Below, in pieces: positions 45,839-56,187 of a DNA stretch of 64,000 bases. This DNA is from Balamuthia mandrillaris (lineage: Eukaryota), in NCBI GenBank assembly GCA_031835245.2, contig JAVKOQ020000081.1:1-64000 (forward strand). The letters run 5' to 3'. The notes beneath the pieces were generated by a model that was given only the letters and a program-made list of their open reading frames with translations, was not told the origin of the DNA and ran no database searches. The position numbers and the translations under genes are program-made. Positions within the stretch are counted from its first letter, which is position 1. Every line of letters begins with the position of its first letter.

Positions 45839-46067
45839 CTTCTTACAAGAATTATTCACTGCAAGAGTGCCAGTTCCTGGTCGACAAGAATGTATTTTTG
45901 TCGACGATTTGATAGTGAAAAACAGGGAAAATTGGGTGAAATAATTTTAGTACATTATTTTTAGGATCTGGCACCAACTTCATTTTTCCAAGAAATAAAG
46001 GTTAAGTTAACTTTTATTTACAGCGATAAACAAAAAAAAAAAACAAAAAACAAAAAACAACACAAAC

Positions 46068-48322
46068 ATGCCACGTGCAAAAAGAGTCAAACGCCAACCG
46101 CCTTATGTTTGTGAGCACCTCTACTGTTCACCACAACGGTTTGTTGCACAGGATACCTCCACCCTCAATCGACATGAAAGGCGCAAGGGAGGAGGAGGGC
46201 ATACGTGTAATGCAACTAATTGCACAACCTGCAAGCGATGGGAAAACCATCGACTTGGAAAGAAGAACCCAAACGACCTGAGGTTCGAGTGCCGTCACTC
46301 TGTTTGTGGCAAACGTTACAAATCAGAAGAGTCAAGAAGAGAGCATGAAGCAACAGTTCAACATACCTGCTCACCTGATTCCTGTGCCCGTTGTAAGGAG
46401 ATAGCCACCCGCCAGGATGAAAAGGGAAAAGAGAAGGAAAAGCAAGAGCAGGCAAAGGAAGAAGTGAAGAAGCAACGCGAAGAAGAAATAGAAGAAGCTA
46501 AGCAAGACATCATGGAGGCGATTGAAACGAAGGTGACTTGGGATGTTGAAGGAAACGTGCGAGTAGCTGTAGCAAAAGCAGCAGTGGAAGGAGCACTCCA
46601 AGTTGATGTAGTATTAGGAGTGGCTGCCATTATTCACTCTTCTCCAGTGATTGAAGGATGGCTACAAGCAAACCTCTCTACATCTACTTATCAACCTTGT
46701 GTGACAGACCTTGTCTGGTTGAAGAATGTGTTGCGTATACCAGATCGTTGTTGGGAGTTGGTTGTTCATATTTTCAAGCTATCAAAACAAGCAAGCCTAC
46801 ATCAAGTTCGAAAGAAGCAATGTGAGTTGTTAAACAAGAAGGAATTGGTTGCAACAAAAGGTGGAAAAGGAAGTATGTACCAGCCGAAAGAGTTTGTACA
46901 GCAACTCTTTTCATCTTCTAAACTTCAAGCAGCAGATCGACCTGTTTTAAAGCTTGCCTTTGATGGATCTACAGCAGCCAAAAAAACTCATCTACAAATG
47001 GAAGTTGGGACGATGGAGTTCATAAGCAAGAAATCCACATTGAAGGCGCTCAAATCGTCACACAACTGTCATCCTTGGCTGTTGTATTTAGGAAACGAAG
47101 ATGGAGAAACATTAATCAGAGAACTTGGTGATCAACGAGCAGTGCTCAACGACTGGATAGAAAAGGGTGTGCTACTTACTTCTTCTTCTGGTGAATTGGT
47201 GCACCTGTGGCCATACATTGTGGTTGACTTGAAGGCCTTGGCTGTTTTTAGTGGCATGTATCAATTCTATCGCAGCAACTCTACCTGTCGCTGTTTTTGG
47301 TGCAATGTCACAAAGCAGCAGTTAGCACAAGGTGAACTCTCAGCAGAAGAAACTCGCTTTCGTACCTTAGAGGATGTCAAAAATGATTGGAAAGCAGTTA
47401 TCAACTGGGAAGAGGCAACAAGGAGATCAAAAGCGACAGATCATCATGGACAGGTTTGTGTTGTTTTTTGTTTCTATTTGCTCTTCTGACTTTTGTTGGT
47501 GGTCTTGTTTGCTAAAAGGTGCTTGAACCTGTGTTGTTTTTAAATCCAATGCAAGTTATTCCAGATCTTCTTCACCTATTAATGGGCGTAGTTCGCAAAC
47601 TCATCAATAAGACAATTGAGCTCGCAGCAGAACGACCAAGGTTACAACAACTTTTTGTTGAACGAATGGCTGGAATTGGGATTTACCTTATTCCAGCAGC
47701 TTCTGGAGTTGGTTTCAAGAAGAGGATTAAAGACAGCAGGCTCAACAGACGTGAACATTTAATCATCCTTGAAAATCACACGTTCATTTTAGCAGACCTT
47801 GAGGAAGGCATGCCTAGAAGAGCACCAATTCGAACAACACTTCCACAAGTTCGTCAGGTTTGGGCAGCTTTCCATCGAACAGCCTGTTTAGCAATGCAGG
47901 AAAAGCTGAGCATCACGGATGAGGAATGGAAGCAAGAGGCAAAGGTGTTTTTGCAAGCCTTTATTCAGGCATGGAATGGAAGGGATGTTACTACATACAT
48001 TCACGTGTTTGTTGACCACCTTGGCTACTGGCTGGAGCGAGAAGGCTCGGTCGAAAAGTTCAGCAACTTTGGCATTGAAACCACGCACGCCGATCTCAAG
48101 CGGATGATGACGCAGTCAACACAAGGCTTCGCGGGAATCAATTCCGGTGATTGTTCTCTTCCACAGCAGCTCCTTGAAAGGCAAGCGCTTTGTGCTGAAG
48201 CTGCCGCTGCCTCTCCCGTTGTAGCAAAAGTTCAAGGTGCTACACAAAGAGGTGAAAGGTCATGGGCAGAGAGAAATCTTGAGCATTTTCCCGACCTTCA
48301 GAGATATATAAGAGAGCAATAA
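46068..48322 (+). CDS. RAG1/Transib/Chapaev-like DDE transposase or domesticated recombinase, ~729 aa, one intron (47454-47518), two N-terminal Zn-finger modules
   Basis: Ordered motifs LKLAFDG, NCHPWLLYLGNEDGETL, VVDLKAL, CRCFWC, PDLLHLLMG, TTYIHVFVDH and GSVEKFSNFGIETTH parallel the RAG1 core. A phase-0 GT-AG intron joins the two ORFs. Confidence 0.8.
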
Positions 48323-48748
48323 AAGCAAGCATACCTGTTCATTAAACTCATGTGGCCACTGCAGTGTGCCATGCGCATTGAAAACTTGGTAACGAAGGCT
48401 GATTTTTGTCCTGAACCTCTTGAAATCGTAGGACACCGTTACTTCGGGCGTGAGCTCTGCATAGCCGCCATCCGTGAAGTTTTTTCTCCTCATGTTTAAT
48501 GGGAACGGTGAAGCCTGAAACTGTTCCTCCGTCTTGTAGTGCACGGACTCAGTTGTTCCCCAAACAAAAGCATGAAAGGGCGGAGGTACCACTACTGCAA
48601 CAACAACTGGAAGCTTTCGTGGCTCTTGAGTCAGGTTCTTACAAATCTCCTGCCATAGGCAGCTAAACACAAAATAGCTTATGTCTTCCTCAGCGACAAA
48701 CACCCCCGCTCCTTGTCTTTGTTGTCGTTGTTGTTGTTCTTCTTCCAT
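48138..48748 (-). CDS. Small unknown protein convergent with, and overlapping, the RAG1-like gene
   Basis: ORF from MEEEQQQ. A CAG|GTATGC donor at 48334 and a polypyrimidine-TAG acceptor at 48240 give a 171-aa product ending at 48138; unspliced, the ORF is 162 aa to 48260. Confidence 0.55.
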
Positions 48749-49461
48749 CGTCGATCGCGTCGTGTCTTCCCTTTCTTCTTTTCCCCCTTTTTATCGTTTT
48801 TTAGAGTTTTTTTTTTTCGTGGCTTTGTCTACAACAAATGCCAATGTAATGGCAAAAGAGCCAAAAAACCCATATTTGGGTTAGTGCCAGGTCCTGCGGC
48901 ACGATTTTTAGAGGAAAAATTCTGCAGTGGCGGTTCCTTAAGGATTAGGAATTTTTTCCAGGAAAAACAATTAACAAAAAATGGTATGGTCAATTTGAGG
49001 AGCACTTGAGCAACCAAAGGCAATTAGCGGAATCTCTTTACAGACGCACGCGGCCCAGTTTTGTCTGCTGGAGTGAAGCGGGCAAACCCCGTGGAAACAA
49101 CCGGACGTGAACGTTCGCCATCAAGGATCCCTCGGCGTAACTGTCATTTTCGTTTCCCCCGCAAGAGAGCAGAGAAGCGGAGAGGCAGAGAGGCAGCAGA
49201 GACCATTCGCTCTTGTCATCCTTGTTATAACTTTTTTTGTTCTCCAAAAACATCTCTACCAAGAGAGAAGAAGCCCCCAGGTGAGTCCCTAAGGAAAAGC
49301 CTGCTTCTTCTTTGGCTTTGTCACCCACCCCCATCACCGGTGTACGTACGTCTCCTTGTTTTTTTTTTTTTTTTTGCCACCCATCTGATTGACTTGATCA
49401 AATTCTCTTTCGATGAACAAACAGAACATAAAAATCACTTCCATCGCAAACAAAAGAGAGA

Positions 49462-52323: not shown

Positions 52324-55300
52324 ATGCCAGCACGCAAAGGAGCAAAAGTGCAAACGCCAGCCAGCAGTGAGGAAGTTCGCTTGCGGGAAGCTGCCGAATT
52401 GAAAGAGGCCTTGAGGTTAGTATTTCTCTCTCACTCTCGCGGAAACGCTCGAAAAGTAGAGAAGCGATTGGAATTGACGCCGTTTTCGTTTTTTTTTCTT
52501 GAATAAGACGATCGAGAGAAGAGACCTCTGCCATGACTTTACTGTCTGAGAAACCAACCAGCAAAGCCTGGACCGGGGGCAACACTGTGGCCAGACTGGA
52601 GGCCGCACAGCATGGCCTGGACGAGGAGGACCTCATGTTGGATTCTTTCCTCCAGTCCAAAGGCCTCGTCCGCAAGCATACGCCCAAAGACGGAGCTTGC
52701 TTGGTACCTAATCCTCTCCTACCGCTACTGCTGCTTTCTCGCCGCTGTTTGAAGCTCCTCTCACCCATGTTGTATCGCTACAGTTCCGAGCCGTGGCGGA
52801 ACATATTTATCACACTCAGTCGATGCACGCGAAGGTGCGCAAGCAGTGCGTCGAATTTCTGGAAGGTCACCATAAGGATTTTGTGGACTTTGTGTGCACC
52901 AGCAACATGCCGTACAAACAATATCTCGCACACATGAGACAGGTTCGCCTTCCTTTTATTTGTCTGCTGTTCTGTTCTGTTCTGTTCTGTTCTTCTTTTA
53001 TTTTATTTTATTATAGCTTTGATGCTGACACTCTCTACTCTGTGATGGACAGCCAAACACGTGGGGCGGCGAAATAGAGCTTAAGGCCCTTGCACGGGCT
53101 TTCGACTGTGCCTTTCACATCTACCAACAATCCCAGGAAAAGCCAGTGGTCATCCAGGGAGATGATGGCGAACAAAGAACGCCAAAGACGCTCTATTCCT
53201 TGAGCTTCTCACACAACAACCACTACGACGTGGTATATACCAAAGAGGAATTGGAGAGGTTGACTTTTTGTCAGGGTTTGGTCTATGAAATGGTTGATAA
53301 AGCATTGGGAGGAAGCGATGAGGGCAGCACATCCGCTCAGGGGCAAACAACTTTCAAGAACATAGAGCTGGAGTCCTGGAAACATGAGATGAAGAGAAGA
53401 GAAGAAGAAGATCTGATGTACGCAGCGGTTATTGAGCGAGAAAGCAACGGTTATACGAATAATTCACAGGAAGACGATGAAGGAGAGTTTATAACGGTAG
53501 GGCGAAAGAAGAGAGGAAACGCAGCAGCGAAGTCCTCGTATTGGGGCAAAACGGGAGGCAAGGAGAGCAACGGAGTGGGAAGGGGTTATGGCGACGTCAG
53601 CCAACAAAGAGGGGCAAAGCACAACAAAAGCTTCAACGGAAACAAACCGCGGGCACAGGGAAAGCAACATTACTTTGGCAATGGACACTATAAAGAAAGA
53701 CCCGTTCGACCGGACGACAAAGATAGCTTTCCGGTGCTTAAAGGCAGCGGATTGCGACTTCAGAGCTTTGAAGGTAAATCAACGGCACAACGGAAGGAAA
53801 AGGCAATCCAAAACGGGGAAGCGACCAATACGGAACAGAAGAACTCACAAGAAATGGCGCAACAACAAACAACAACGACACAAGAAACCACCCCTGCTGC
53901 GACTACTCCTGGCACTACCTGGGGTGCTAAGAACTGGAGCTCCATCTTTTCTCAGACAGAACCCGCGGTGAAACCTGAACCTGTCGCAAACAATCATGTT
54001 CCGGAAAAGAGCAACGAAGAGCCTGCCAAACAACACAGAAAGGGTTCCATGGAACGAGACCCCGCCACGAACAAACGAAGCAAGACCAGACCAGAGCGTA
54101 AAACCTCAGACAAGGGGAAGGCTAAGCTCTTTACTCAAAACGGGACATCCGACGCCACCGCCATTACCAAAACGGACGAGCAATCACAACCAGAAAATAA
54201 AGCTGAGTCACCCGCTCCTCTCGTTCCTCCGCCTGGTGCTAAGGGAATGTGGGCCACACCAAAGAACTGGTCCCAAACTTTTCTGGAACCTGTCTCTACA
54301 CCAGCACCAACCACAACTTCATCCCAACAGCTTCACGACAGCCAACAAAACATCGACACTTCTTCTGCCACTGAAAAGGCTACAACAGAGGCAAGTCCAA
54401 TTGCAAGCAATGATTCCCAGGAACAACAACCTTCATCACCCTCTTCGTCACAAGAAAAAACAGGAGACGCAAAGGCTGAAGTTCCTCAAAAATCAGAGAA
54501 TCAGAACGAAGAGGGGCGTGACTTAGCAGATACTCGCGCAACTAACACTACTGAACATAAAGAGAGCAACAAAACCATCCCCATCGACGAAGATGCAATT
54601 TCCTCTTCAACGAACCTTGGTTTGCAAACCGAACACACTGAACAAGCATCCAACAATGAAACCGAAAAGCCAACTTCAAAGCCAACAGCATCCCCTATGA
54701 CTGAAGAGACATCTGTCGCTACTGCTGTTACTTCAAGCGGCGAGCAGCTTGTTGAACTGCAACAACGCAATGCAGCCGCACAGACGTTGGAAGATGAGCT
54801 TTACGACATACATCAACTGAATCACGCCATCAGCAACGCCATCACCACGAAGAAGCACGCAGCTGCTCTCTTCTCCCTCTCTTCTATCGCTTTTGGATCA
54901 TTTACCGCAACAAATGATCCAACTACTTCCTCCGCTCAGAAACAACAAGCCTCCTCATCTTCTCAAGACTCATCTACCGTCGCGACCACAACTTCCACCA
55001 CAGCCTCCGCCTCGCTCGTCGATGTAGATATCTCCAAAGCAACAGCGGAGAGCGAGGGTGCTATTCACTTCCAGTTTGGCACCTTCTCTCCCCGAGAGAA
55101 GCATTCCGCTGAAGAAATCTCCGCCAAAGAGGAAATAAAGTCGGAAAACAAACAACAAGGACACACCAAACAAGAATCTCCTTCCACCTCTCCTTCTGCT
55201 TCATCCCAAAACGAAGCTACAACTACTGCCGATGAAAAGCAGCCACACAACAGCCATCACACTCATAAACCGCCCCGCGGCAACAACAAGTCACACCAAC

Positions 55301-56187
55301 ACAACCGCACCAGCCCATCCTACCAACAACGCAACAAACACAACCGCCAAACGAACAATAGCAATTCTGAACCGTTGACCAGCGACACTGCTGCGCTTCC
55401 AACTCCTCACCAATCCAGCTATGCCCCACCCCTTCATCATCCCCACGCCTATTCTCCCCATTACCAACACCCCCACCCATACGTCCACCACCAACAGGCC
55501 TATCACTATCCTCACCAACAACAAGCCTACTATGCGCCTGCCGCCTATGTGCCTGCGCCCCATGCTGCCTACTATCCTTCTCACCCTCATTATAACCATC
55601 ACCATCCTCAATACCACCCTGCCGCTATGCCTTATGCCTCTCACCACCTTCATCACCAAGGCATGGCCCCTTCTTCTCCTCAGGAAGGAGGAGCACAACC
55701 TTATTGGACTCCTTCCTCCACGGCATATGATGGTGCTGCCACCTACGAAACTTACGATGCTGCTCCCGCTGGTGTGATGTATCACGATGGTTCCTATGAG
55801 GGTGGCGTTGCTTACGAGGGTGGAGGCTATGAAGCTTATGCTCTCGCTCCCCATCCTGGCGCCATGGCGTATGCACCTCATCCTCACCATCCTCATCAGA
55901 TGTATGGTGCTTATCATCCTGCTGGTGCGTATGATTACTCTGCCTATGAACAACCGGTGTACGCGGACGGACCTCCGGGCAGCTCTGAGCAAGCGGTTGT
56001 CTATCCTCACAGTCATCATCACTATTCGCCAAGCCAGCCTGATGCCTACACTCCTCCTTCCTCTTATTCCTCCACATCTTCTTCTGTTCCTTATTCATCC
56101 TCCGCTTCTTCTGCATCTTCCTCATCTTCTTCTTCGTCCTCTTCTTCTGCGTCCTCCTCTTCCTCCTCCTCTTCCACTTCTTCTTAG
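52324..56187 (+). CDS. OTU-domain deubiquitinase (OTUD4/ALG13-like) with long disordered, H/Y/P-rich tail
   Basis: KDGACL|FRAV (catalytic D/C), TWGGEIELKAL and SFSHNNHYDVVY (catalytic H); exon 1 MPARKG splices in frame. Confidence 0.88.

Follow-up and report, generated by a model that had tools for sequence, protein, structure and literature searches.

Balamuthia mandrillaris most probably carries a 3.07-kb multi-copy cut-and-paste transposon, likely recently mobile, that encodes a DDE transposase with a predicted RAG1/Transib fold and a small convergent partner, ORF2, which would aid or control transposition; we set the probability of this reading at roughly 0.8. What the data show are both genes and, in one run, how they are spliced, as well as the element's ends, its copies, filled and empty alleles, and conservation of the gene pair in distant relatives. 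The element lies in the window, by which we mean the whole 64-kb stretch of DNA that was analysed, and its features are listed in Table 1.

Table 1. Coordinates of the element and its genes in the window.
Feature	Position	Strand	Comment
Whole transposon, 3,073 bp	45857-48929	+	depth steps, loose ends, empty-site alleles
Left terminus CACTGCA	45857-45863	+	loose ends 45856 or 45857 in X1, X3, X6
Right terminus (TGCAGTG on +)	48923-48929	-	7-bp perfect inverted repeat of left end
Subterminal 12-bp motif GTGCCAGnTCCT, copy 1	45867-45878	+	
Subterminal motif GTGCCAGnTCCT, copy 2	45963-45974	-	
Subterminal motif GTGCCAGnTCCT, copy 3	48884-48895	+	
Transposase exon 1	46068-47453	+	aa 1-462; ATG at 46068
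Transposase intron	47454-47518	+	GT..AG, 65 nt; joined in run X6
Transposase exon 2	47519-48322	+	aa 463-729; H481, H624/H629, E649, helical tail, stop
ORF2 exon 1, 138 aa	48335-48748	-	entire conserved domain; outside transposase coding sequence
ORF2 intron	48240-48334	-	GT..AG, 95 nt, phase 0; X6 joint 48239>48335, depth 564
ORF2 exon 2, 33 aa + stop	48138-48239	-	antisense to the 3' end of the transposase; unconserved among relatives
Antisense introns (four)	47291-47365, 47079-47179, 46797-46880, 46300-46366	-	GT..AG, X6 only, inside transposase gene

The element, its ends and its copies

The transposase reading frame comprises 729 aa in two exons with a single terminal stop, as an earlier note on this DNA had described, and run X6 joins the exact intron. 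The spliced product is 100% identical to NCBI KAL6066024.1 (P0006) of B. mandrillaris. Codons 46962, 47226 and 48077, proposed in that note as the catalytic triad, indeed encode Asp, Asp and Glu (D299, D387 and E649), and the seven motifs of the RAG1 core are all present in the order given there. Exon 1 encodes two tandem Cys/His modules (~aa 15-109), followed by a long helix (107-155), and also the RNase H core with D299, E344 and D387, plus C409/C412. The zinc motif is formed by C409-x2-C412 and H624-x4-H629, and D387 and E649 are spaced 262 aa apart. An alignment of 66 sequences, counting the rows that have a residue at the column, shows D299 in 40/40, D387 in 50/50 and E649 in 42/45; likewise C409 is kept in 52/52, C412 in 51/52, H481 in 55/55, H624 in 45/47 and H629 in 41/42. 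The catalytic and zinc residues are thus invariant or nearly so across the family, which places the motif set above chance.

Contigs of public runs X1, X2 and X3 mark the boundaries: depth, which is here no measure of copy number, rises several-fold at 45855 and falls in the bin 48900-49044, and a low-depth X1 contig reaching the right flank begins at 48901. We infer the right end to within about a base, no right-hand loose ends being present among the matches listed. The view that there is no clear TIR has to be given up, as 7-bp inverted ends (CACTGCA/TGCAGTG) lie at the run-confirmed boundaries, 45857 and 48929. The pattern GTGCCAGnTCCT, picked after inspecting the element ends, occurs three times in the 64-kb window, each time no more than 120 bp from an end, and these sites likely bind the transposase or its partner. 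GTGCC stands at +11 on the left and +28 on the right, making bipartite, RSS-like ends possible.

The neighbours of the insertion site, both assigned by Pfam, are a minus-strand gene for a RecQ-type helicase and, on the plus strand, an MBOAT gene. Empty-site alleles join 45841 to 48949 (X2) and 45853 to 48949 (X3). They depart from the window sequence right at the junction, so that they do not display a clean insertion or decide for or against a target-site duplication (TSD) at this locus. At the window copy, whose flanks read TTATT on the left and GCGGT on the right, we found no TSD of 2-10 bp, in agreement with the earlier note, and moving the ends by as much as 3 bases gave none either. The candidate ends of two environmental relatives, L011 and L012, have none either, and both observations count against our reading. 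Cut-and-paste elements of the CMCT clade, introduced below, are expected to leave a TSD.

In several left flanks TATT or T directly precedes CAC (window 45850-45856, L011:2430-2437, L010 and one X2 contig), which hints at a target rich in A/T; the sites of Transib and RAG are GC-rich. A 10-bp palindrome, TCCTTAAGGA, lies at 48935-48944, shortly to the right of the element, and is partly missing in both empty alleles. We considered the empty alleles as footprints of hairpin excision but did not adopt this reading, since the first of the extra bases is no P-nucleotide and the changes extend over ~20 bases. Elsewhere in the window, 53029-56187 (plus strand) is a 1,052-aa low-complexity frame, a host gene with a weak OTU protease match at its start (E 0.001).

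One assembly contains 15 near-identical annotated copies on 15 contigs, each of another length (a 90% cluster of 14 plus P0002), a count that haplotype duplicates may inflate. Four other full-length copies differ from the window copy by 1, 3, 3 and 5 substitutions, and several of the remaining copies are truncated. Loose ends common to several runs also lie inside the element, at 47894, 48200, 48333 and 48351, and point to truncated or internally deleted copies elsewhere in the genome. The same assembly holds at least three further transposase families.

A domesticated host recombinase, one of two outcomes that the earlier note had allowed, would fit the intact frame, its splicing in X6 and the absence of a TSD at the window copy. 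Such a gene is a single fixed locus without ends, whereas the window element is multi-copy with ends: its near-identical copies lie on different contigs, many of them truncated, and share a sharp end with different flanks at a site that is empty in other alleles. We hold domestication to be very improbable. The 15 near-identical copies, the intact ends and the empty-site alleles identify a multi-copy transposon, likely recently mobile, and not a domesticated gene. The other outcome, a new transposon lineage, is supported. Transposable elements of Balamuthia await annotation, according to the available part of bioRxiv 10.1101/2025.02.25.640156, and with this one a source of insertion polymorphism in the B. 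mandrillaris genome, so far uncharacterised, is named.

Fold and relatives of the transposase

As single sequences the exons have no match in Pfam or among PDB sequences, and word-indexed homologue searches returned Balamuthia proteins only. A full HMMER scan gave 302 transposase relatives at E<=0.001; the ten looked up include two further Balamuthia families and one protein each from Planoprotostelium fungivorum and Heterostelium album. With this element the range of RAG1/Transib-fold transposons extends to Amoebozoa. Relatives of the transposase were absent from the pattern matches in viral contigs (0/333) and from those in GTDB genomes (0/68). Balamuthia family members P0017, P0022, P0172 and P0174 bear the NCBI labels 'Trichohyalin-like', 'unconventional myosin-VIIb-like' or 'Caldesmon 1', which likely stem from the charged helix of the transposases. 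An 805-aa family member (P0023) has a C-terminal fusion to an Ulp1-type peptidase C48 (E 8.9e-19); peptidase C48 fusions occur in other DNA transposons too.

A 66-sequence profile, made from the query together with P0016 and 64 picked by length from the 150 of 302 matches listed, matched amphioxus RAG1L (BbRAG1L) at E 1.7e-11, zebrafish RAG1 at E 1.5e-4 and mouse RAG1 at E 0.024, and did not match HzTransib at E<=1. The alignment-based model of the transposase reached a pLDDT of 88.1, against only 35.7 for a single-sequence model. In it D299 is within strand 293-304, D387 right after strand 382-385 and E649 within helix 646-661, so the triad sits on core strands and a helix of a predicted RNase H fold, as the earlier note had required. 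Foldseek matched the model to RAG1 (E 8.7e-13), HzTransib (1.2e-8) and BbRAG1L (3.1e-7). Likewise, VIA-align gave Z scores of 25.4 for RAG1 (rmsd 3.5, 443 aligned), 23.6 for HzTransib and 22.9 for BbRAG1L, with other transposases lower (P element 13.1, ISCth4 9.5, Hermes 8.5). Residues 208-700 superpose on mouse RAG1 460-1007, and the N-terminus (1-206) is barely covered by the comparison. Profile and fold thus bear out an enzyme of RAG1/Transib type. The transposase is predicted to have this fold at about equal distance from all solved members, with 11-14% identity to RAG1, HzTransib and BbRAG1L, and in the model it is not clearly nearer RAG1 than HzTransib.

In the ESM Atlas, RAG1 clusters scored 0.95-0.96, level with unnamed eukaryotic clusters, and 8 of the 10 best named matches belonged to RAG1 families or the RAG1 clan. 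A viral structure library gave a single marginal match of hAT type (E 9.5e-4).

The CMCT clade comprises EnSpm/CACTA, Mirage, Chapaev and Transib, along with Plavaka, ESTA and Lanisha, and its criteria include CA..TG termini and a TSD of 2-5 bp (available part of PMC12730594). The window element has the DDE triad in a predicted RNase H fold, the zinc motif and the CA..TG termini of the clade; a TSD of that length is unseen at the window copy, the only locus with verified flanks, where the alleles differ at the junction. The motifs that the earlier note took as a signature of the RAG1/Transib/Chapaev group are present and are common to the whole CMCT clade, as far as the accessible text of PMC12730594 goes. 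No Chapaev or CACTA structure is among the fold matches, so the fold gives no placement within the clade.

A Chapaev-related transposon would be compatible with the RAG1 match for that same reason. Chapaev has the C(2)C motif, the H(3-4)H motif and the CA..TG ends in common with the window element (PMC12730594, in the part available), the transposase N-terminus is a complex zinc-finger region, and one ESM Atlas neighbour has DUF1280 in 16% of its members. Chapaev transposases bear a Chapa zinc finger at the N-terminus, with RING or without it. Yet none of the 66 aligned family members matches DUF1280 or RING (Pfam, E<=0.01), and the best named ESM Atlas matches fall mostly, as given above, to RAG1. 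Chapaev TSDs are 4 bp long, and none of that length is found at the window copy. We regard this placement as quite improbable.

ORF2 and its environmental relatives

ORF2 is a second gene, missed in the first reading, that is convergent to the transposase (48748-48138, minus strand, 171 aa); the element leaves no room for a further one. Its exon 1 contains 2 Cys. Run X6 is recorded as 'DNA?' yet has the behaviour of RNA: the transposase intron is skipped, as is one intron in the RecQ neighbour, and depth is zero at 48755-49044. Five CT..AC stretches, 67-101 nt long, are skipped as well; they are canonical minus-strand introns, and none of these joints is present in X1-X3. The strongest of the five is the ORF2 intron. 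The four antisense introns of Table 1, seen in contigs of this one run with short sides of 27-30 letters, likely belong to a spliced antisense transcript, and suggest read-through from ORF2.

ORF2 has no informative match in Pfam, and its best match in PDB has E 0.85. Kelch or PHD domains were not matched in Pfam or PDB, by single sequence or profile; we rejected ORF2 as a kelch-PHD RAG2 on this ground and because it is far too short. In the ESM Atlas the best score was 0.78, under chance level, and none of 5 matches in viral contigs was a relative. A complex prediction for transposase 200-729 with ORF2 12-138, in which alignments were unused and the partner fold was uncertain, scored 0.00 and speaks neither for nor against an interaction.

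Metagenome contigs hold at least 21 transposase-related loci, collapsing to at least 15 distinct elements. Among the matches listed, ORF2 homologues occur in 11 of the 21 loci (7 of the 15 distinct elements), and every one lies immediately downstream of its transposase, on the minus strand. The window ORF2 as sole query finds L010 (8e-10), L007, L008, L003, L011 and L012, and a profile of the first homologues extends to held-out L004 (1e-13), L015 (1e-10) and L002/L016 (3e-8); the best E in reversed-sequence controls was 0.27. As for elements without a match, L001, L009, L018 and L021 stop within 500 bases of the transposase match, L014 is a fragment and L020 a distant branch; L017 has a weak match (E 0.15). 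L005/L006 have no ORF2 in 4.5 kb of downstream DNA, though their transposase is in the same clade, so the partner may be dispensable.

Divergence of ORF2 is highest at the third codon position in 26 of 28 pairs (L010/L003: 0.41/0.24/0.61), which is the codon-position pattern of a coding gene, one that protein-guided alignment somewhat favours. The transposases accompanied by ORF2 are 27-31% identical to that of the window and form one clade (FastTree support 0.92) in a tree of 35 sequences, all family members, with no outgroup. Co-divergence of ORF2 and transposase was not significant (Mantel rho 0.23, p 0.08, 8 elements). A two-gene RAG1-fold transposon lineage spans amoebozoans and environmental eukaryotes. 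The two-gene layout recurs in L010, which measures 3,159 bp and has ends that read CACTGCG; the end CACTTCGAGT is common to L004 and L011, and 5'-CA..TG-3' termini are found at L010 and L004 as well. CA..TG pairs in L001, L003, L005 and L009 were regarded as chance and not accepted as ends.

Further frames accompany the transposase in two relatives. The L004 element, 4.6 kb long with 10-bp inverted ends, has an extra 194-aa frame without a Pfam match between transposase and ORF2 (L004:3211-3792, plus strand). Next after the transposase of L005, in convergent orientation, comes a gene for a PD-(D/E)XK_2 (Rpn-type) nuclease (L005:4477-5412, minus strand, E 4.9e-14).

ORF2 stays within the ends, in a fixed position, over great divergence, which argues for an accessory to the transposase. 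We lean somewhat towards a component of the transposition complex that works together with the transposase; a role in regulation or anti-silencing seems less probable, and any other improbable.

Place among known elements and proposed mechanism

Vertebrate RAG1 and the RAGL/ProtoRAG elements (BbeRAG1L-RAG2L, AanRAGL) have the same predicted core fold as the window transposase, in which the BbeRAG1L active-site residues D/E/D/H/E have conserved equivalents and which, like RAG1/RAG1L, has a zinc-domain insert of RAG1 length. As in most RAGL, two convergent genes lie between CAC ends. However, RAG2L is a six-bladed kelch plus PHD protein, whereas the window partner has 138-171 aa and no kelch/PHD match. 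The N-terminus also differs from RAG1/RAGL, having two Cys/His modules in tandem while no match to RING was found, and the 5-bp TSD of RAGL is not seen at the window copy. A CCGHC C-terminal tail (CTT1) is a RAGL feature (available part of PMC10629977; PMC9435367); by inspection the C-terminus of the window transposase has no such tail, and its sequence no GRPR motif. With no RAG2L and no CCGHC tail, this is not a RAGL element.

Transib, with its Subgroups I and II of Tao et al. 2022, resembles the window element in fold (Z 23.6 to the hairpin-forming HzTransib complex), in its ~700-aa transposase, its 3-kb size and its CAC..GTG ends; the perfect terminal match of the window element is only 7 bp. 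Transib is a single-gene element (PMC7204232, available part) with a 5-bp GC-rich TSD, whereas the window element has two genes and no such TSD at its one verified locus. It is not a canonical Transib.

It could nonetheless be a divergent Subgroup I Transib, or a basal RAG1L, with ORF2 as a passenger outside transposition. The insert between D387 and E649 is RAG1-like in length, at 262 aa against 252 for BbeRAG1L D811-E1063 (available part of PMC7204232), and the zinc-domain region is retained in RAG1L and Subgroup I Transib (PMC9435367). The profile matches RAG1L and RAG1 though not HzTransib, the CAC ends and the length of 3 kb accord with Transib (from what is available of PMC1131882), and the lack of ORF2 in L005/L006 is as expected of a passenger. 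Against this, the 5-bp GC-rich TSD is missing and the left flanks are A/T-rich, the CCGHC-type tail and the GRPR motif are absent, and identity to RAG1 and HzTransib is low. Moreover, ORF2 has held its place across transposases as divergent as those above, a long retention for a passenger. This placement is improbable in our judgement. The element fits no named lineage tested and its partner gene is outside known families; we place it near the CMCT clade as a new lineage with two genes, related to RAG as a cousin and not as its ancestor.

In current models the RAG transposon arose when a single-gene Transib captured RAG2L. This distant, apparently mobile RAG1-fold lineage, with a different convergent partner kept among elements only ~30% identical, shows that enzymes of this type gained a second gene on more than one occasion. 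Relevance to the origin of V(D)J recombination outside animals, as first claimed, was overstated, given 12-14% identity to RAG1 and a fold not clearly nearer RAG1 than HzTransib; the element does not move that origin. A true RAG1L-RAG2L transposon (AanRAGL) is already published from the alga Aureococcus, and Transib-like proteins are known in fungi, plants and bacteria (PMC9435367). The supplementary text of that paper mentions none of the amoebozoan genera looked for, nor Naegleria or Chapaev, and its text-free figure pages may contain a species survey. Among the literature titles and abstracts listed, none describes this amoebozoan lineage or its partner gene; Repbase may hold related entries.

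RAG1, BbRAG1L and HzTransib cleave by a nick-hairpin route (available part of PMC10629977). By homology to these enzymes, a transposase dimer would bind the CACTGCA ends, likely also the subterminal GTGCCAGnTCCT sites, nick the DNA and make hairpins on the flanks. The excised ends would then be joined to a new target via D299/D387/E649, with C409/C412/H624/H629 as the probable zinc site. ORF2 would assist the transposase within the transposition complex, and antisense read-through from the ORF2 side may dampen transposase expression. With its intact, near-identical copies the element lends itself to testing if its partner behaves as RAG2 does.

A bolder reading, which we consider unlikely, holds that this is an old protist RAG1-fold lineage in which an unrelated small transposase-binding cofactor fills the RAG2 slot, convergent and tail to tail within CAC ends, and integration leaves no TSD. 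If true, the two-gene design of RAG would be older than RAG2 or have had two origins, and the element would be a live RAG2-free system in which to ask what a second subunit gives a RAG1-type enzyme.

In the profile alignment, R536 (motif DSRLN) aligns with the Arg of MRMNGN in zebrafish RAG1, 55 residues past H481 compared with 53 in RAG1; alignment confidence is low in this region, where the BbRAG1L alignment is shifted. This Arg corresponds to mouse RAG1 R848. An Arg at the R848 position suppresses transposition in jawed vertebrates, and the residue is typically Met in RAGL (available part of PMC10629977). The window transposase may have an Arg at this position.
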